NCBI GenBank assembly: GCA_041389025.1
Contig: JAWKSP010000001.1
Span: 478,663 to 542,662, forward strand
Reading direction: 5' to 3'
DNA from: Minisyncoccota bacterium
Lineage (GTDB): Bacteria > Patescibacteriota > Minisyncoccia > Phycocordibacterales > UBA918
DNA: 64,000 bases
In this document: piece by piece, positions 2,887 to 18,319 of the stretch
Layout of the letters: each line of letters starts with the position of its first letter
How positions within the stretch are numbered: the stretch's first letter is position 1
Translations under genes and position numbers: made by a program
Notes under the pieces: generated by a model
Told to the model about the DNA's origin: nothing
What the model saw: only the letters and a program-made list of their open reading frames with translations
Database searches by the model: none

Positions 2887-5406
2887 ATGGAAGAAAATAT
2901 ATTTACACCAAAGGTAAATTCTGTTAAGCAAAGTTCTTTAACAGATTTTTTATATAATTTTGCTAAGTTAGCTTTTGTGGCAACTATTGGTTTGCTTCCT
3001 GTTTGGTTTGTACCAGAAGTCTACACTTCATTAGGTTTTACTAAATCATATTTTGCACTGTCAGGTTTAGTTTTAATCCTTATTTTACTAAGCTTGTACA
3101 CATTTAGAAATGGGACACTAAGACTGTCACTACCTGTATCTGTCATTATTTTAGGTTTCTTTGTGTTGACTTCTCTTGTTTCGGCTTTACTGTCGGGAGA
3201 CAGGACAGATGCTATTTTGGGTGATAATTTTGAAATTCATACTGTCGGTTTTTTTATTTTGTTGTTTATTACATTAGTTGTTGGTTTTATCTTTGGTAAA
3301 GATAAGGTAGTTATAAATAAACTTTTTACTTTTCTTAGTGTTGCAACCTTAGTATTACTTATCACACAGGTTTTACGTCTATTTTTGGGTCCTGAATTTT
3401 TATCTTTTTCATTATTTGTGTCTGAGACTCACTCGTATTTTGGTAGTTTTAATGATTTGGCTCTATTGGCTGGACTAGTAGTTGTCGTATCCTTGATGGT
3501 TTTACAAAATGTTTATAAAAGTATTGTCAGTAAGCTATATTTAATTACTGCAATTTTGTTGTCTTTACTAATCATGTCAGTAGTTAATTTCTATCTGGTT
3601 TGGTTAGTGGTTGGGATTTTTTCTTTGGTTTTATTGTTACAACAATTATCTACAGACACTTGGTTTGGAAGTAAAGATAAAAAACCATTATCAAAATTTA
3701 ATACGACGTTAACTTTTATTGTGGCTTTAACTTCATTTATTTTCATAATTATCGGAAGTTATGTTGGAGAAAAGATTATTTCTAAAACTGGAATTAACTA
3801 TCTTGAAATAAGACCTTCTTTTAGTACAACAGTAAATCTGGCTAATAATGTATTTGAATATGATGCCCTTTTAGGAGTTGGTCCTAATCGATTTTCTGAC
3901 GCTTGGCGTCTTTATAAGGATCCAATGATTAACCAGACTGAATTTTGGAATACTGACTTCAATGCTGGTAGTAGTTTTTTATCCACTCTATTTGTGACTA
4001 CCGGAATACTTGGTGGATTGTTATTTATATTTTTTATTCTCTCTTTCTTATATTCCGGATACCGAACTTTGTTTAAAAACGAACTAGAAGAATACTGGTA
4101 TAAAATCGGTGTTGTTTCTTATGTGGTGTCCTTGTATCTTTGGGTTATGACTATTTTATATGTTCCAAGTAGTAGTGTACTGTTATTAACAGCTACTTTT
4201 ACCGGAATGGCTTTAGCGGTTTATATAAAATCAAAAAAAGATAAGTCTGTAACCATAGATATAAATGCAGTTGTGAATAAACATCAGGGTGTTTTGTTGA
4301 TTGTGATTTTACTAATCACTAATATAGCTATGATTTATTCTTACATTGTGGTTACTAAACAATATTTAGCTCAAACTACATACGCTAAAACTTTGTTAAA
4401 TTACAGTTCTTATAATGAGACAGATATAGATTTAGTCCTACAGAAATCTCAAACATGGTTTGCACAGGATACTTTTGTAGCTGAGCGGGCAAAATTAAAA
4501 TTGGCTAAAGTTAATAGTCTTTTGTCTATACAAGAACCAACTAAAGAACAGGAAGAGGAATTTAGAGTTACCTTAGCTTCTGGAGTGGCTTTGACTGAGC
4601 GGGCAATTATTTTGGATCCAACCAATCCTTATAACCACGCATTATTGGCAAGTTTTTATGCTCTTTTAAATCCACCTAAAGACAGTGATATTTCGATAAA
4701 AAAAGAAACTGAATTAAATCAACTGTTTACTTTAGATCCAACTAATCCGAGTCATTATGTTTTGTTTGCTCAGCTATCGGCTCGGTTTGGTGACGCCTCA
4801 ACTACCAGACTGTATCTAAATAAGGCTATTAACCTTAAGAATGATTATACTGAAGCTTTATTTTTATTATCACAGCTGGATATTGCCGAGGGTAACACAG
4901 AGTCAGCTATAAAGACTACTAGAACCATTGCAAATGTAGAATCGAGCAATCCTACTAGACAGTTTCAATTAGGTATTCTATTATCCGCTAGTAATGATAT
5001 AGATGGAGCGATAAAGGCATTTGAACGAGCGATTGCTTTAGATAATAATTACGCCAACGCTCGTTATTTTTTAGCACTATCTTATCTTGATAAGGGAGAG
5101 AAGATGATGGCTTTAGAACAGTTAAACTTAATTTTGGTTTCTAATCCTGATAATGAATCTTTAAAGCAAGTGATTAAAAATATTGAGGATGATAATTTTT
5201 CAAGTATCAACCAAGATCTTGGAGTTCCGGTTGAAGATGTTGATTTAGTTAATCAAGAAGAGGACGTAACTGTTTCTTCTAAATTTCCAGATACAGATTT
5301 GGTTACCTCTTTAAATCAGGGGGCGACACAAGAACAAGTAGTTGAAAAGGAAGCAGTAAATGATCCTGTAGTACCTGAAACTAAAAATGAGACAGATGAG
5401 TTGTAA
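2887..5406 (+). CDS. Polytopic membrane protein (O-antigen ligase/Wzy_C-like N-terminal region, ~12 TM) with a C-terminal TPR-repeat domain
   Basis: ~450 aa of repeated hydrophobic helices followed by ~350 aa of TPR-like repeats (AxxxxxAL, NxxYAxARYFLALSYL). This architecture is commonly annotated O-antigen ligase family + TPR. Confidence 0.55.
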   Translation: MEENIFTPKVNSVKQSSLTDFLYNFAKLAFVATIGLLPVWFVPEVYTSLGFTKSYFALSGLVLILILLSLYTFRNGTLRLSLPVSVIILGFFVLTSLVSALLSGDRTDAILGDNFEIHTVGFFILLFITLVVGFIFGKDKVVINKLFTFLSVATLVLLITQVLRLFLGPEFLSFSLFVSETHSYFGSFNDLALLAGLVVVVSLMVLQNVYKSIVSKLYLITAILLSLLIMSVVNFYLVWLVVGIFSLVLLLQQLSTDTWFGSKDKKPLSKFNTTLTFIVALTSFIFIIIGSYVGEKIISKTGINYLEIRPSFSTTVNLANNVFEYDALLGVGPNRFSDAWRLYKDPMINQTEFWNTDFNAGSSFLSTLFVTTGILGGLLFIFFILSFLYSGYRTLFKNELEEYWYKIGVVSYVVSLYLWVMTILYVPSSSVLLLTATFTGMALAVYIKSKKDKSVTIDINAVVNKHQGVLLIVILLITNIAMIYSYIVVTKQYLAQTTYAKTLLNYSSYNETDIDLVLQKSQTWFAQDTFVAERAKLKLAKVNSLLSIQEPTKEQEEEFRVTLASGVALTERAIILDPTNPYNHALLASFYALLNPPKDSDISIKKETELNQLFTLDPTNPSHYVLFAQLSARFGDASTTRLYLNKAINLKNDYTEALFLLSQLDIAEGNTESAIKTTRTIANVESSNPTRQFQLGILLSASNDIDGAIKAFERAIALDNNYANARYFLALSYLDKGEKMMALEQLNLILVSNPDNESLKQVIKNIEDDNFSSINQDLGVPVEDVDLVNQEEDVTVSSKFPDTDLVTSLNQGATQEQVVEKEAVNDPVVPETKNETDEL

Positions 5407-13866: not shown

Positions 13867-13928
13867 GGTTAAATTACAGAAAGCCCTTACCTTCGGTCAC
13901 CAAAAACTAGCTAAACGCTAGTTTATTT

Positions 13929-13948
13929 TGGTGCCCTCGGCAGGAATC
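13929..13948 (-). repeat. Orphan 20-nt copy of the tRNA-Arg 3' end (T-loop to CCA)
   Basis: GATTCCTGCCGAGGGCACCA on the minus strand, identical to 14055..14074 of the intact tRNA 108 bp away. Confidence 0.6.
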
Positions 13949-14054
13949 CCTTTAAGGCCGGAGAAATGCTCGTAAACATCGCTTTTCTCTTCGATTCCTG
14001 ACGAAAGCAAAATTATTTGCTTTCTCCTCAGGCACCATTAAAAATTCTTTTTAA

Positions 14055-14129
14055 TGGTGCCCTCGGCAGGAATCGAACCCACATTTCCTCCTTAGGACGG
14101 AGTAGTTCTATCCATTGAACTACGAGGGC
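14055..14129 (-). tRNA. tRNA-Arg (anticodon CCU)
   Basis: Minus strand GCCCTCGTAGTTCAATGGATAGAACTACTCCGTCCTAAGGAGGAAATGTGGGTTCGATTCCTGCCGAGGGCACCA. Cloverleaf folds with a 7-bp acceptor, D arm GTTC/GAAC, anticodon loop GUCCUAA, T-loop TTCGATT and encoded CCA. Confidence 0.8.
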
Positions 14130-14286
14130 ATGTAATAATATTTGCACAGAGTTCGATTCCAACGGAATCGATTCTTACAGAATCTGTACAGGTTGTCGGT
14201 ATTTTACTTCCTAACGTCGTAAAATACCAGTCAACCTTCTTCGACAGTCTACTTAAGACTGTCTCAGCCCACACGTCCTCCTGATA

Positions 14287-14320
14287 GACGGAGTAGTTCT
14301 ATCCATTGAACTACGAGGGC
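14287..14320 (-). repeat. Orphan 34-nt copy of the tRNA-Arg 5' half (acceptor through anticodon-loop position 34)
   Basis: GCCCTCGTAGTTCAATGGATAGAACTACTCCGTC is identical to the first 34 nt of the intact tRNA-Arg and then diverges (TATCAGGAGGACG...). No complete cloverleaf. Confidence 0.6.
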
Positions 14321-14390
14321 TGTCTGAAATGTTTTTGTACTTTATCATAATCTGGGAAAATTGGCAGGGGATTGTTATACTTACTAGACT

Positions 14391-14690
14391 ATGTCTACAT
14401 ATCAAGATAATGATGAAAATGAAATTAAAGATTTAATCAAAGAAAACCAGCGTTTACTGATTGAAAATAATCAACTTCTGAGACAGATGCGCCGCCACTC
14501 CATCATTGGGGCAATCTTCCGTTTTTTATGGTTTGTCTTAGTGATAAGTATTCCTGTTTATATCTACTTTCAGTATGTTCAACCAAACTGGGAAAATTTA
14601 ACTACAAAAATCAATGAATTAGAACAAACTTCAGCTGAGGTGGGGGAGATTAAGGAGTGGTTTAACTCACTTAATTTGCGACCTAGGTAA
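14391..14690 (+). CDS. Hypothetical small membrane protein (coiled-coil N-terminus, one TM)
   Basis: 99-aa ORF between the tRNA genes with a hydrophobic segment (IIGAIFRFLWFVLVISIPVYIYF). No clear Shine-Dalgarno. Confidence 0.4.
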   Translation: MSTYQDNDENEIKDLIKENQRLLIENNQLLRQMRRHSIIGAIFRFLWFVLVISIPVYIYFQYVQPNWENLTTKINELEQTSAEVGEIKEWFNSLNLRPR

Positions 14691-14774: not shown

Positions 14775-14850
14775 GCTTGGGTAGCTCAGTTGGTAGAGCG
14801 CTTCCCTGAAGAGGAAGATGTCGTCGGTTCGAGCCCGACCCCAAGCACCA
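14775..14850 (+). tRNA. tRNA-Phe (anticodon GAA)
   Basis: GCTTGGGTAGCTCAGTTGGTAGAGCGCTTCCCTGAAGAGGAAGATGTCGTCGGTTCGAGCCCGACCCCAAGCACCA. Canonical cloverleaf with encoded CCA. Confidence 0.88.
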
Positions 14851-14899
14851 GTATATAAAATGCCTCCACATGGAGGTGTTTTATATACTGGTGCTTGGG
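14840..14899. repeat. 21-bp perfect inverted repeat containing the tRNA-Phe 3' end, flanking a GC hairpin (probable terminator)
   Basis: cccaagcaccagtatataaaa ... (gcctccacatggaggt) ... ttttatatactggtgcttggg. Confidence 0.55.
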
Positions 14900-15029
14900 A
14901 AGAAAGGTGTTAATACACCTTTCGTTCGGGCTCGCACCACAAGAGTATTTCCATTTTTATACTTCTTTCAGTCGTTAAAAATTAGGTCAAAAGCGCAGTC
15001 ATGTCGCACGGAGCGGAGCGAGTACGACA

Positions 15030-16470
15030 GACGAGCTGGCTATGAAAAAGCTGTGAACAACTAAAATATTAAGTTTTCTAACCCTTTCTATTTTTTGATA
15101 AGATATTATGAGAGACTTTGGCAACACGAAGGTAATCAAGTATCCTTCACACTTGGTTTCGTAACCCATGCGGCTATCCGTGCTAAAAAGCACAAGGTGT
15201 CATACGTATTACGGGGTCTCAATCGGGGTCACGGTGTCACAGCACCACCCTCGCTACGAGATCTCCACTCTTCGTGTTGCCAGAATCTCCCATATCAGAA
15301 AAGGTCCGAAAGGGCTCTTTTCTTTTAACCAGATACCACATGATAGTGAGCATCTTTCGAGCTAAAGCAACCCGAGCCACCTTAGAACCCTTTTTATCTT
15401 TGATTCTCGAATAGAATGTATATAACCTACCGGCTGAAGGTCTGATCTGACAGGCTGCTTCCACCATAATAGATCGCAGAAACGGTGAGCCTTTTCTGGT
15501 AATGTGTCCAAATCGCAACTTCCCTCCAGAAGAATGAGATGAGGATACTAATCCAGCGTAACTCGCTAACTGTTCTGGAGTCTTGAATCTTTCAAAATCT
15601 CCAACTTCAGCAATAATGGTTAGAGCGGTTAGTTCAGCTACACCAGGTATACTCATCAATACCTTGGCACGTTCATCTATTTTAGCTTTTGATTTGATAA
15701 TAACATCAAGTTCTTTGACTTCACTATTCACAAAATCAATGGTTTTTATTAATGATTCAACCTCTTTTTTATATAACTTATGGAAAACCTGATTCTTGAT
15801 CCAGAGTTGTCCTTGTTTTCCAAACAGGTCAGTAACAGGACTTTCTAAACCATGTTTCCAGAGAATGCTATGGACTCGATTCTTAGTTCTGGTTCGTAAA
15901 CGAATATAGAACATTCGCCAACGTACCAACTCACGCAGGTCTCTAACAGCCGGTGGTGCTAGGTATGCAGTGGCGATAAAATCTATACGAAGTAGTTCAG
16001 CGATAATTTCCGAGTCAACCTTATCGTGTTTAAGTCGACTTGCTGCAATAAGTTTAGTCTTAGCCGGATCTATCAGTTTAACTGTTATTCCAGTACTCTC
16101 CAGTACTTCAGCAAACCAACCCCATTGTGATACCGGTTCAATTCCGGCACATACTTTACTTATATTGATTGGTATCTGTTTTAGAGTAATAAGAGTATCT
16201 TGTTTGGTGGTTGGTACCTTACCTTGAAAAATTCTATTCTTATTTGAATCAATAAGTGTCCAATATCCGAAGGATTTATGCAGATCAATTCCTAAATAAT
16301 ATTCATTCATAGTACTAGTGTTACATTAATAATAATCAACTATTAATATCGACCTATGTATAGGCTAGCACTTTTTCATGACATCGGGGTCGAGAGTACT
16401 TAGTAAAATATAAGCTTGCGAAATATTTTACTTAGTAACTCGTGACCGAATCCTACCGCCGGAGCTAGAC
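15030..16470 (-). mobile_element. IS110-family insertion sequence; boundaries approximate
   Basis: Contains a DEDD-type IS110 transposase flanked by ~200 bp 5' and 3' non-coding regions. Both flanks end in cggagc-containing sequence (15018-15030 cggagcggagcgag; 16456-16468 ccgccggagc). No terminal inverted repeats, as expected for this family. Confidence 0.6.
15237..16310 (-). CDS. IS110-family transposase/recombinase (DEDD RuvC-like N-domain + C-terminal Transposase_20 domain)
   Basis: N-terminus MNEYYLGIDLHKSFGYWTL (GIDxxK). SIPGVAELTALTIIAEVGDFERFKTPEQLASYAGLV helix-hairpin-helix motif typical of IS110/IS902/IS1111 transposases. Confidence 0.85.
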   Translation of the reverse strand: MNEYYLGIDLHKSFGYWTLIDSNKNRIFQGKVPTTKQDTLITLKQIPINISKVCAGIEPVSQWGWFAEVLESTGITVKLIDPAKTKLIAASRLKHDKVDSEIIAELLRIDFIATAYLAPPAVRDLRELVRWRMFYIRLRTRTKNRVHSILWKHGLESPVTDLFGKQGQLWIKNQVFHKLYKKEVESLIKTIDFVNSEVKELDVIIKSKAKIDERAKVLMSIPGVAELTALTIIAEVGDFERFKTPEQLASYAGLVSSSHSSGGKLRFGHITRKGSPFLRSIMVEAACQIRPSAGRLYTFYSRIKDKKGSKVARVALARKMLTIMWYLVKRKEPFRTFSDMGDSGNTKSGDLVARVVL

Positions 16471-16535: not shown

Positions 16536-17150
16536 TTGGAAATAATTAATTGGATAGTTATATCCACCATAATCCTACTGGTTTGGATAGTTAATTACAG
16601 TGTACTTGCCTGGAAACGGGAAGTATATCCAAATCCTGTGAGTTGGTTCGTATGGACTGTAGTTGGCTTAGCCCTTTTTCTCACTGCCGAAGCATCTGAA
16701 GCAAAAGAAGTTTACTTTGCTACAATTATTTCAGCAGCAGGTCCTGCTATAATACTTGTTATTATTCTCCTTCGTGAGACAAACAGAATCTACAGCTTAT
16801 CATTACGTGAAAAATTATGTCTCACATTCGCACTTATAGGATATAGTTTATGGTTTATTTTAGGAGAAAACCCTGAATTAGCTCAATGGTCACTGTACTG
16901 GATGATTTGTGTTGATTTTATAGCACTTTGGCCTACACTTGAGCAAGCAATTAAAAAACCAGAATCTGACAAGCCTATTCCATGGATAATATTCGGTCTT
17001 GGTTACGGTATAACTGGATTAGCAATCATAGACCATACTGTGGCAAACTGGGCATTACCAGCCTATATGTTTGCAGGCTCATTGGCGGTAGCAATACCTC
17101 TGGTATTAATAAGGATAAAGAAAAGAGTCTTACTTAAAGAATGGTGGTAA
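16536..17150 (+). CDS. Hypothetical 6-TM membrane protein
   Basis: TTG start preceded by a strong SD (aagaaggaggtg). 204 aa, mostly hydrophobic helices. Confidence 0.55.
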   Translation: MEIINWIVISTIILLVWIVNYSVLAWKREVYPNPVSWFVWTVVGLALFLTAEASEAKEVYFATIISAAGPAIILVIILLRETNRIYSLSLREKLCLTFALIGYSLWFILGENPELAQWSLYWMICVDFIALWPTLEQAIKKPESDKPIPWIIFGLGYGITGLAIIDHTVANWALPAYMFAGSLAVAIPLVLIRIKKRVLLKEWW

Positions 17151-17216: not shown

Positions 17217-17247
17217 ACAAGTTCGAACACCCTCCACCCAGCGGAGC
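17217..17247 (+). repeat. 31-bp direct repeat, copy 1 (acaagttcgaacaccctccacccagcggagc), immediately followed by a TTGACA -35 box
   Basis: 30/31 identical to 18442..18472. Part of a CCAGCGGAGC-core repeat family that also occurs at 17786-17798 (degenerate), 17841-17852 (inverted) and 17955-17973, and resembles the IS110 left-flank sequence 16451-16468. Confidence 0.6.
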
Positions 17248-17335: not shown

Positions 17336-17623
17336 ATGGCAGTCAGTCAGGAAGTCAAGGATTTCAAAAACCCGTCTGGGTACTGGAAGCACGATGGTTC
17401 CTTCTCGGTCGAGCTGGTGCCAGATGCGGACAAAAGCATGGTGCCAACCTCGGCAGAAATCAGGGGCGACACCGTGCACGTCTGTCACGGACGTATCAAG
17501 CAAACGATGGGGAGTATCCAGCTCTATTCCTACGAATCCCAGTTCTGCTGGGGCTATCCTCGCATCAAGGTCATCCGAGATGGTCAGGGCAAGCTGTTGT
17601 GGGTGAACTACAACTACCGCTGA
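17336..17623 (+). CDS. Hypothetical 95-aa protein encoded in a GC-rich (~54% GC) segment; likely horizontally acquired
   Basis: Consensus-like promoter (TTGACA-17-TTTAAT at 17248-17276) and SD (ggaggt) precede the ATG. Normal amino-acid composition. Followed by a GC-rich hairpin terminator. Confidence 0.5.
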   Translation: MAVSQEVKDFKNPSGYWKHDGSFSVELVPDADKSMVPTSAEIRGDTVHVCHGRIKQTMGSIQLYSYESQFCWGYPRIKVIRDGQGKLLWVNYNYR

Positions 17624-17764: not shown

Positions 17765-17840
17765 TACAGTTCTGAACGCGTCCAGCTGAGGGAGCATATA
17801 AAATCTTAGTCATGTGAAAGCGTGGCTTTTGATTTTAATG
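17765..17840 (+). repeat. ~75-nt repeat unit, copy B (degenerate 5' part; 3' part ggagcatataaaatcttagtca...gcgtggcttttg shared with 18463-18520)
   Basis: cagttctgaacgcgtccagctgagggagcatataaaatcttagtcatgtgaaagcgtggcttttg aligns with caagttcgaacatcctccacccagcggagcatataaaatcttaatcacgcccttgcgtggcttttg. Confidence 0.45.
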
Positions 17841-18037
17841 CTCCGCTGGAGAAAGTGCCCTGCGACACTTTCGTTAGGATTCGAAAAGCGCTTTGAGGTA
17901 TTTTAGAGCTTGCGAACAAAATATCCAAACACTGCACCGTCCATGTAATGGAAGAATCCTACCAGCGGAGCAAATATTGACAAGATTACTTTTATACTGT
18001 ATGCTATAAAAGTTGTTACTTAATTTCGAGGTGAACT

Positions 18038-18319
18038 ATGTTTAATCCTTTTTTGGCTTCAGAAAGTGCTAAAATCTTTCAAAATCTTTTAAACAAAGGT
18101 GAAGTACAAGACAGTGAAGCGGAGTCTTTGATTATTGATTTTCTCACAAACAAATGCAACTACAAAGAAGTAACTCCTGAACTTAGGGAATTACTTGCCT
18201 TTGCCCTCGGATTCTTTTTAAAGGGCGCGATATCTAACAACGAAATAGAAAGAATTATGGGAATTAGATATTCTAAAATATGCTCAGACATTGCAAATGG
18301 ACATATAAAATTAAAATAA
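18038..18319 (+). CDS. Hypothetical 93-aa protein
   Basis: Preceded by TTGACA-17-TATGCT (17977-18005) and SD gaggtg. Low-GC, helical composition. Confidence 0.45.
   Translation: MFNPFLASESAKIFQNLLNKGEVQDSEAESLIIDFLTNKCNYKEVTPELRELLAFALGFFLKGAISNNEIERIMGIRYSKICSDIANGHIKLK

Follow-up and report, generated by a model that had tools for sequence, protein, structure and literature searches.

The DNA analysed here, referred to as the window, is a stretch of 64,000 nucleotides (nt) of ordinary chromosome with housekeeping genes from a Minisyncoccota bacterium of the candidate phyla radiation (CPR/Patescibacteria; assembly GCA_041389025.1, contig JAWKSP010000001.1, positions 478,663 to 542,662). It contains two transfer RNA (tRNA) genes, tRNA-Arg(CCU) on the minus strand and tRNA-Phe on the plus strand (14775-14850), and both are accompanied by small modules that end in copies of tRNA 3' ends and that are the subject of this study. 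The tRNA-Arg gene (14055-14129, CCA encoded) was called by both ARAGORN and Rfam (55.9 bits; gathering score 29). An earlier note on this DNA had described exact orphan copies of 34 and 20 nt around the intact gene, and both were recovered. The 34-mer GCCCTCGTAGTTCAATGGATAGAACTACTCCGTC, tRNA-Arg positions 1-34, occurs exactly twice in the window (14096-14129 and 14287-14320), as does the 20-mer GATTCCTGCCGAGGGCACCA, which extends from the T-loop's middle through CCA (14055-14074 and 13929-13948), while the number of matches expected from shuffled sequence is 0 for each. The spacers of 157 nt (14130-14286) and 106 nt (13949-14054), the hairpins and the GGAATCGAAC motif were also present as described there. 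When 13900-14330 (~430 nt) was folded, it was far above shuffled sequence in structure (z = -10.9).

Contrary to what had been claimed, the anticodon loop is not the precise end of the 5' copy. Past position 34, similarity is kept up to the T-stem 5' strand (GTGGG at 14268), with a single gap and 14 of 18 bases matching, and reaches position 52/53. The fragment corresponds to tRNA-Arg positions 1 to ~53 with an 8-nt anticodon loop (GTCTATCA) and ends at the T-stem/T-loop boundary. It was not called as a tRNA by ARAGORN, relaxed thresholds and intron mode included. On the other side of the gene, the tRNA 3' end is found in the 106-nt spacer as a reverse complement in two separate parts (TGGTGCC...CAGGAATCGAA).

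Both spacers belong to one module family, members of which were found beside different tRNAs, on Paceibacteria-type contigs, in organisms whose host proteins are only ~57% identical. Read from the tRNA end (X), the module begins with a hairpin (hp1), in many cases similar to a terminator in having a G+C core and then a run of T. It is followed by X'a, the complement of the acceptor 3' strand and of what comes after it, the dinucleotide AG, a 9-bp hairpin (hp2) with a GAAA...TTTC foot, CGT, and X'b, the complement of the T-loop and the T-stem 3' strand (consensus CAGGATTCGAA). X'a and X'b together form X', the reverse complement of the tRNA 3' end, which is split by hp2. The module is completed by a loop that varies, after which a further copy of X begins at GA(T/A)TCC within the T-loop. 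Modules measure ~110-220 bp, and no genes are present in the repeat-bounded units. Changes on both sides were observed for eight of the nine base pairs of hp2, and 90% of the cells were paired versus 62% in shuffles, a value that none of 500 shuffles reached. Single-strand folds of two different modules gave one three-helix shape (z ~ -5); in the module downstream of tRNA-Arg it is made up of a closing helix, hp2 and an inner helix (z = -5.3). After tRNA-Phe, a palindrome with 29-bp arms begins in the acceptor strand and is followed by the acceptor-end complement, a 9-bp hairpin and the T-arm complement.

A covariance model (R2) was built from seven modules of other organisms only (loci L001, L016 and L020) and run on the window with filters off. 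Exactly three sites with E < 1 were identified in the 64 kb (Table 1). In the 157-nt spacer, positions 14172-14244 matched L016 139-210, the loop of the first module after tRNA-Asn, with 81% identity over 74 nt in BLAST (E = 9.5e-10), and a complete Asn-type module of the window showed 70% identity to L016 100-233. Searches with R1 and R2 covered the window and the searched loci, ~400 kb. In these other loci, all matches with E < 0.01 lay after a tRNA gene or in an array extending from one, except in L020 and L024, where the matches lay in intergenic regions bounded by tRNA ends, on contigs without a called tRNA gene. The module layout was observed after tRNA-Arg in L013 (a metagenome contig), after tRNA-Cys and tRNA-Lys in L001 and after tRNA-Asn in L016, and was also met in L020, L023 and L024. 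One module follows tRNA-Arg in L013, there are two after tRNA-Cys in L001 and in the relatives L030-L032 that are nearly identical to it, and at least five follow tRNA-Asn in L016.

Rfam searches of the window and the loci with permissive thresholds identified only tRNAs and one group I intron (in L015), no family covering the modules, and no description of such modules turned up in literature searches. Matches in the phage collection were at the level of the tRNA only, and two pattern scans of viral contigs gave an empty result and a chance match within a coding region, respectively. A metagenome scan with the 34-mer gave two contigs, the module-bearing L013 and L014, in which a plain tRNA-Arg lies beside G+C-rich DNA. 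Among genome contigs, relatives of the neighbouring 604-aa gene did not exceed 57% identity and showed no synteny at the tRNA-Arg site.

Syntenic relatives, L033 and L034, were found via homologues of the small open reading frame (ORF) at 14391-14690 next to the locus. L033, from Candidatus Nomurabacteria (CP060227.1), has LepA, DivIC, glutaredoxin, tRNA-Arg, the small ORF and tRNA-Phe in common with the window. The number of downstream modules at the orthologous tRNA-Arg is zero in L034, one in the window and two in L033. In L034, tRNA-Arg ends 7 nt from a convergent neighbour gene, the 5' fragment is absent, a plain terminator follows tRNA-Phe, and no module was found with R2. L033 also has no 5' fragment. 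Its module is orthologous to that of the window, flank TAAACTAGCGTTTAGCTAGTTT included (83% column identity; the core 13987-14037 corresponds to L033 5595-5643), and an additional partial module sits between it and tRNA-Arg. The present 3' end of the L033 tRNA-Arg has no CCA and the older orphan has CCA, as in the window, and this would be the case if the tRNA received its 3' end anew from the most recent module. The earlier note had named sameness of the arrangement among relatives as the outcome that would speak against integration; this was not observed, and the relatives differ, which favours integration. The region had also been called an integration hotspot, and variation of the locus among syntenic relatives bears this out, but no integrase was among the matches listed for the window ORFs. 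With regard to the encoded CCA, it is present in both tRNA-Arg and tRNA-Phe of the window and not in the orthologous genes of L033, L034 and L013.

In each orphan, identity to the tRNA begins in the T-loop, at GA(T/A)TCC, and GTGACC was observed on the element side of five right junctions, two in L001 and one each in L013, the window and L033. The proposal that the copies are attachment (att) cores is supported for the 3' copy, which spans the mid-T-loop to the 3' end, but the spacers are inserted units and not leftovers. The tRNA-Phe module of the window matches L033 up to GTGACCGA and then continues into a tRNA-Asn-type end (ATCCTACCGCCGGAGC), where L033 has a Phe-type end. Since the sequence up to this point is common to both, the breakpoint lies in the T-loop. 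Asn-type ends bound the 2 kb past the hybrid junction (16448, 17217, 17768, 17954 and 18442), and a tRNA-Asn gene that would explain them was not present in the window. In the simplest reading, the hybrid would result from recombination between T-loop sites of different arrays.

The synteny between the window and L033 ends at the tRNA-Phe module array (~16.4-18.8 kb; L033 6850-12291). Beyond this point, msrAB and thioredoxin genes are found in the window and HSP20 and PrsW genes in L033, and the array coincides with a rearrangement breakpoint.

The orphan and the tRNA were found to co-vary. The L033 tRNA-Arg has the acceptor pair T4:A69 (GCCTTCG/CGAAGGC), whereas C4:G69 is present in the window, L013 and L034. 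The orphan X (GTTCCTGCCGAAGGCACCA) and X'a (TGTGCCTTCGG) of L033 have the L033 acceptor state, and in the window tRNA-Arg and its orphan both carry GCCCTCG/CGAGGGC. Because the modules of L033 and the window are orthologous, yet each matches its own tRNA, the orphan has been kept in step with tRNA-Arg. Judged from these sequences, this would fit an end that is periodically at work, via excision and integration or gene conversion, and not a passive relic.

The upstream flank of the 5' fragment, and not that of the intact tRNA, aligned with the tRNA-Arg upstream flank in L033 and L034 (GTAAGTATAACAA...ATTTTCnCA...GATTATGnTAnAGTA). Therefore, the 5' fragment occupies the ancestral gene start, and a 191-bp insertion either encloses the intact tRNA or precedes it. 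Compared with L033 and with L034, the unit of 191 bp between the 34-nt repeats is inserted sequence. It contains the diverged 35-53 stretch, hp2, a type-A loop, a truncated X that abuts a CGT-X'b-like element, a site similar to a promoter, and positions 1-34 of the tRNA. The hairpin at 14243-14263 lies outside the BLAST match; it was folded and was assigned as hp2 by its likeness, judged by eye, to hp2 of L016 (AAACAGTCTGGGAGACTGTTT), with an identical AG flank. Our best guess for the internal junctions of the unit is that small deletions occurred within stacked modules. Its boundary is the anticodon loop, the other classical crossover site in tRNA genes, and in L015 a 41-nt tRNA-Asn repeat was found to begin at the anticodon loop.

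At this L015 locus (3720-4010), a group I intron (RF00028, 68 bits, 3755-3954) interrupts the anticodon loop of a tRNA-Asn(GUU), which was missed by ARAGORN; the 41-nt repeat is a direct copy of its own 3' half and lies downstream. The contig also carries a homologue of a 95-aa ORF of the window (see below) and Asn-type ends. In L001 (9057-9249), a tRNA-Leu(TAG) has an exact 19-nt copy of its own 5' end 108 nt upstream, followed by an inverted copy of the D-arm region (GTGCGTCTACCAATTTCG), which mirrors the direct-plus-inverted pattern at the 3' ends.

The features of the locus are collected in Table 1. The flank at 13883-13924, which is kept in L033, may be the remnant of an older module end.

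TABLE 1. Features at the tRNA-Arg and tRNA-Phe genes and sites identified with R2, in window coordinates.
Feature	Coordinates	Strand	Basis or remark
Truncated tRNA-Arg 5' fragment	14268..14320	-	Exact 14287-14320 (1-34); diverged 14268-14286 (35-53)
Hairpin GACAGTCTTAAGTAGACTGTC	14243..14263	-	hp2 of partial upstream module, X'b (T-arm complement) mostly deleted
Type-A module loop: GGTTGAC, 10-bp hairpin, GACAACC, then ...GTAAGAA	14172..14236	-	BLAST to L016
TCGATTCC-GTT-GGAATCGAAC	14151..14171	-	Truncated X (T-loop fragment) abutting CGT-X'b-like inverted T-loop; perfect 8-bp hairpin
Promoter-like TTGGAA-16-TATTAT, 5 nt ahead of intact tRNA	14135..14162	-	Consensus match only
Intact tRNA-Arg(CCU), CCA encoded	14055..14129	-	ARAGORN, Rfam
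Perfect palindrome with 14-bp arms, GGCACCATTAAAAA/GAA/TTTTTAATGGTGCC	14031..14061	-	tRNA 3' end, hp1 and start of X'a
Module core: X'a TGGTGCCTGAGG, AG, hp2 GAAAGCAAATAATTTTGCTTTC, GT, X'b CAGGAATCGAA, GAG	13987..14037	-	R2 match
Variable loop, downstream module	13949..13989	-	Single-strand fold
Orphan X, exact copy mid-T-loop through CCA	13929..13948	-	Right end of module, read as displaced tRNA end (attR-like)
Hairpin AAACTAGCGTTTAGCTAGTTT and GGTGACC/GAAGG (break after GGTGACC)	13883..13924	-	Flank kept in L033
tRNA-Phe (14775-14850) and left part of its module	14775..15039	+	29-bp-arm palindrome, X'a TGGTGCTTGGG, hp2, X'b GTTCGGGCTCG, type-B loop
Right part of tRNA-Phe module, GGGGTCGAG-hairpin-CTCGTGACC, ending in tRNA-Asn-type end GAATCCTACCGCCGGAGCTA	16386..16467	+	Alignment to L033
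Complete Asn-type module: X-like site, hp1, core 17840-17888, loop, X 17954-17972	17768..17972	+	R2, BLAST, fold
R2 site, array downstream of tRNA-Phe	17840-17888	+	46.6 bits, E = 2.7e-9
R2 site, 106-nt spacer after tRNA-Arg	13987-14035	-	39.2 bits, E = 1.7e-7
R2 site, after tRNA-Phe	14891-14939	+	22.4 bits, E = 0.0025

The locus is probably, though far from certainly, a stack of miniature integrative modules that lack an integrase and have their crossover in the T-loop, together with a 191-bp insertion bounded by the 34-nt repeat. Homology of the modules, their restriction to tRNA genes, the insertion polymorphism, the breakpoints in the T-loop and the co-variation of orphan and tRNA were observed, and on these the following model is built. 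A presumed circular intermediate, consisting of the variable arm (loop), X, hp1 and X' split by hp2, would be acted on in trans by a putative recombinase that crosses over in the T-loop. If events ran in the direction of integration, the tRNA would take over the X of the module as its 3' end, and its previous end would be displaced to the far side of the module as an orphan (13929-13948). Repeated events would stack modules, with the newest nearest the tRNA, and recombination between sites of different tRNAs would lead to hybrid modules. In a second kind of event, the 191-bp segment would be inserted at the anticodon loop, by which the chromosomal 5' half would be left at its ancestral position (14287-14320) and the intact gene regenerated downstream. 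X' and hp2 may serve as a structured recombination site, as an extended terminator, or both.

Several results weigh against this model. No integrase or site-specific recombinase was found near any array, and in Pfam and PHROG scans of the window ORFs only an IS110-family transposase was among the matches listed (top 25 families), which may leave out a weak match. No circular or excised form and no strain-level presence or absence of a single module was seen; the module content is identical in L001 and L030-L032, and likewise among L016-L019. Elements that integrate in tRNA genes usually restore the 3' half, but the 191-bp insertion restores the 5' half and has the opposite polarity. In L016, the module nearest the tRNA has a poor X'a (6/10), contrary to the expectation that the newest module is best preserved. 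To our knowledge, phage attachment (attP) sites that target tRNA genes do not include the tRNA end as a reverse complement within the element, which the model does not account for. The non-Watson-Crick pairs in hp2, three G-T versus five A-C without strand bias, are small counts from which function at the RNA level and at the DNA level cannot be told apart.

A different role, as cis-acting RNA elements of tRNA transcription units (extended terminators, insulators or processing signals), is possible for the modules but rather unlikely. The trailer would then pair with the tRNA 3' half or the orphan, the orphan would be kept for pairing with X', and the modules would spread by ordinary recombination. 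Such a role agrees with the often terminator-like hp1, the strong covariation in hp2, the three-helix shape given by two modules (z ~ -5), the X'a of L033 that tracks the acceptor-stem change, and a promoter after the last X in several arrays. However, the comparison with L034, in which tRNA-Arg and tRNA-Phe are both free of modules, shows that the modules are dispensable. An array of five modules that diverge from each other has no obvious RNA purpose, homologous loops lie beside different tRNAs in different genomes, X'a is decayed in several array members, and neither a bias of G-U over A-C in hp2 nor an Rfam family match was observed. A cis-acting RNA role could possibly coexist with mobility. 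Local mutation alone, by fold-back or template-switch replication at a hairpin-prone tRNA gene and without a mobile element, is improbable. Although long imperfect palindromes begin inside the tRNA, the junction TCGATTCC-GTT-GGAATCGA is a perfect fold-back, and the 19-nt 5' copy at tRNA-Leu(TAG) of L001 is followed by an inverted D-arm copy, the hp2 core and loop sequences are common to different organisms and tRNA identities, and the recurrent GTGACC/GA junction (break before GA) and the clean Phe-to-Asn swap in the T-loop would be left unexplained.

The decayed tandem tRNA duplication that the earlier note had offered as an alternative, in which there would have been three copies of tRNA-Arg with the outer two eroded, does not fit the data, and we give it very little credence. 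The partial copies do share orientation and order with the tRNA, and the 5' fragment reaches position 53 with scattered differences. A single tRNA-Arg is present in both L033 and L034, however, and the spacers are homologous not to each other but to modules of tRNA-Asn and tRNA-Cys elsewhere. The divergence of the 5' fragment, 0/34 before the anticodon loop and ~5/19 after it, is not that of uniform decay, and the orphan 3' end is without a mismatch and, in L033, has changed along with the tRNA. It is hardly conceivable that the outer fragments are halves of one functional tRNA in which a T-loop insertion or intron of ~320 nt contains the inner tRNA, even though GCCCUCG and CGAGGGC of the outer fragments are paired with each other when 13900-14330 is folded at minimum free energy: the anticodon loop of the outer fragment measures 8 nt, the 5' half of the T-loop is missing from it, no intron family match was found in the window, ARAGORN in intron mode found nothing, and L033 has the 3' orphan but no 5' fragment.

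The stacked-module model was compared with known systems. When islands integrate in tRNA and transfer-messenger RNA (tmRNA) genes, the gene is restored and a fragment of it is left displaced (Islander definition, PMC4383910). The locus resembles such islands in the regenerated tRNA and the displaced 3' direct repeat, which extends from the mid-T-loop to the 3' end or just beyond (also in L013, L033 and L016), and in the absence of the element from the orthologous site in a relative (L034). It differs from them in size and content, since known islands are kilobases long and have an integrase, whereas the units here are 106-220 bp without an ORF and without an integrase among the matches listed, and in carrying its own att/tRNA end a second time within the element, as a reverse complement that a conserved hairpin divides. 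Integration at the T-loop sublocation of tRNA and tmRNA genes is reportedly exemplified by work of Williams from 2002 in Nucleic Acids Research. The bacterial attachment site (attB) of mycobacteriophage Ms6 lies in the T-loop of a tRNA-Ala (PMC1762012).

Tandem islands at ssrA of Dehalococcoides have 20-bp repeats that start in the mid-T-loop and a conserved element-side motif (PMC3146451), and decayed att-flanked elements and accretion have been described (PMC5704250). As in these ssrA islands and in cis-mobilizable elements (CIMEs) formed by accretion, a single tRNA or tmRNA gene is followed by a stack of att-bounded units that have no recombination genes, and 20-bp mid-T-loop repeats carry a conserved element-side motif at each repeat. 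In contrast, CIMEs are kilobase-sized, unrelated remnants of decayed integrative and conjugative or integrative and mobilizable elements, and the modules are a homologous family with a conserved core at several tRNAs, as though the smallest unit were itself spreading. No parent element or integrase of this type was found for the modules, and scans of viral contigs gave nothing real. The three features not known from the islands compared are the gene-less size of ~110-220 bp, the homologous family at several tRNAs and the split complement with a covarying hairpin; elements of 100-200 bp that repeatedly insert into tRNA genes are not known to us, none being this small.

Integrons consist of IntI, attI and Pc, and their attC sites have the cores RYYYAAC/GTTRRRY. 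The likeness to the modules, meant as a working one only, lies in imperfect palindromes with two paired boxes, in an extrahelical element that is asymmetric and in a terminal structure that varies; structure is conserved while sequence is variable, and small promoter-bearing ORFs sometimes lie between the sites (window 16.4-18.6 kb, L020). On the other hand, IntI, attI and Pc are absent, a tyrosine recombinase is not among the matches listed for the window ORFs, and the arrays start at tRNA genes. Moreover, the boundaries are GA(T/A)TCC in the T-loop, the GTTCGAAC motifs miss the RYYYAAC/GTTRRRY consensus, and the boxes are copies of tRNA ends. By analogy, the modules might form a tRNA-anchored cassette platform in CPR bacteria, with the tRNA gene in the role of attI and a recombinase of the host, which we regard as a speculative and unlikely reading. 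The folded module, as single-stranded DNA or RNA, would pair through X' with the T-arm and acceptor of the tRNA and so specify its own target, and the arrays could capture small promoter-bearing genes such as the family of the 95-aa ORF.

Other candidates were rejected. The complement matches the trailer of the gene and not the mature CCA end in L013, L001 and L033, which speaks against a retroelement primer-binding site, and a tmRNA-like or Y-RNA-like gene had no Rfam match. An H/ACA-like or bridge-RNA-like guide had no supporting protein or evidence and survives only within the cassette-platform reading.

At the tyrT locus of Escherichia coli, 178-bp repeats each end in the last 19 nt of tRNA-Tyr. 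There, too, tandem units downstream of a tRNA gene end in copies of the tRNA 3' end, but the units of tyrT are duplicates in tandem, nearly identical and from a single species, and we know of no inverted copy, cross-tRNA family or cross-genome homology for them. Small palindromic repeats such as miniature inverted-repeat transposable elements (MITEs) and repetitive extragenic palindromes are the subject of PMC3184786 and PMC3733652. They resemble the modules in being small and non-coding with inverted-repeat ends (X'/X in the modules) and hairpins. In contrast to them, the modules are not dispersed and were found at tRNA loci only (searched loci), they showed no target-site duplications, and what would be their terminal repeats is matched by the tRNA next to them. 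Fragments of tRNA genes that arise as a by-product of element integration cause annotation errors (PMC9897764). The partial, non-canonical tRNA sequences beside the canonical gene are similar to those at the present locus, but that work concerns annotation errors, and no module family like the present one is described in it.

Descriptions of integration in tRNA genes normally concern islands of kilobase size with an integrase of their own. If gene-less units of 100-200 bp propagate at T-loops, they would be for integrative elements what MITEs are for transposons. They would then be a hidden source of turnover of tRNA genes, affecting 3' ends, promoters and the encoded-CCA state, and modules could join distant loci in very small CPR genomes, as the Phe-to-Asn hybrid and the loss of synteny might indicate. 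The co-variation of orphan and tRNA suggests that the ends are still used. For tRNA annotation and island-finding tools, the tRNA fragments and palindromes will be a cause of confusion in CPR genomes.

The tRNA-Phe module is interrupted by an IS110-family element (15040-16385) with a transposase gene on the minus strand (15237-16310; Pfam DEDD_Tnp_IS110 and Transposase_20). The insertion point lies exactly between GAGCTGG and GGTCGAG of the module loop, which is uninterrupted in L033 (6575-6590). GG is apparently duplicated, and the element has subterminal inverted repeats of 9 bp (ATGAAAAAG / CTTTTTCAT). It also has a long non-coding end downstream of the transposase (15040-15236), and a 25-nt inverted repeat is found at 15107-15131 and 15270-15294. 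This non-coding end could encode a guide RNA of the bridge/seek type.

Further along the array, small promoter-bearing ORFs lie between the Asn-type ends and encode a membrane protein of 204 aa (16536-17150) and proteins of 95 aa (17336-17623) and 93 aa (18038-18319). The motif ACAAGTTCGAACAyCCTCCACCCAGCGGAGC recurs at 17217, 17768 and 18442. In L020 (100-5300) the same motif follows the terminator in nearly every intergenic region, in a layout that resembles a cassette array. Homologues of the 95-aa ORF (60-82% identity) were found beside tRNA-Asn or Asn-type ends in L015, L016, L020, L023 and L024. The ORF is G+C-rich within an A+T-rich genome and has no Pfam match, the neighbouring host proteins reach only ~58% identity, and ~150 nt downstream of it are also conserved (L023, L024). 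The level of conservation suggests either horizontal spread or strong constraint. Elsewhere in the window, subunits of a V/A-type ATP synthase were identified with Pfam (ATP-synt_D, vATP-synt_AC39 and ATP-synt_VA_C).

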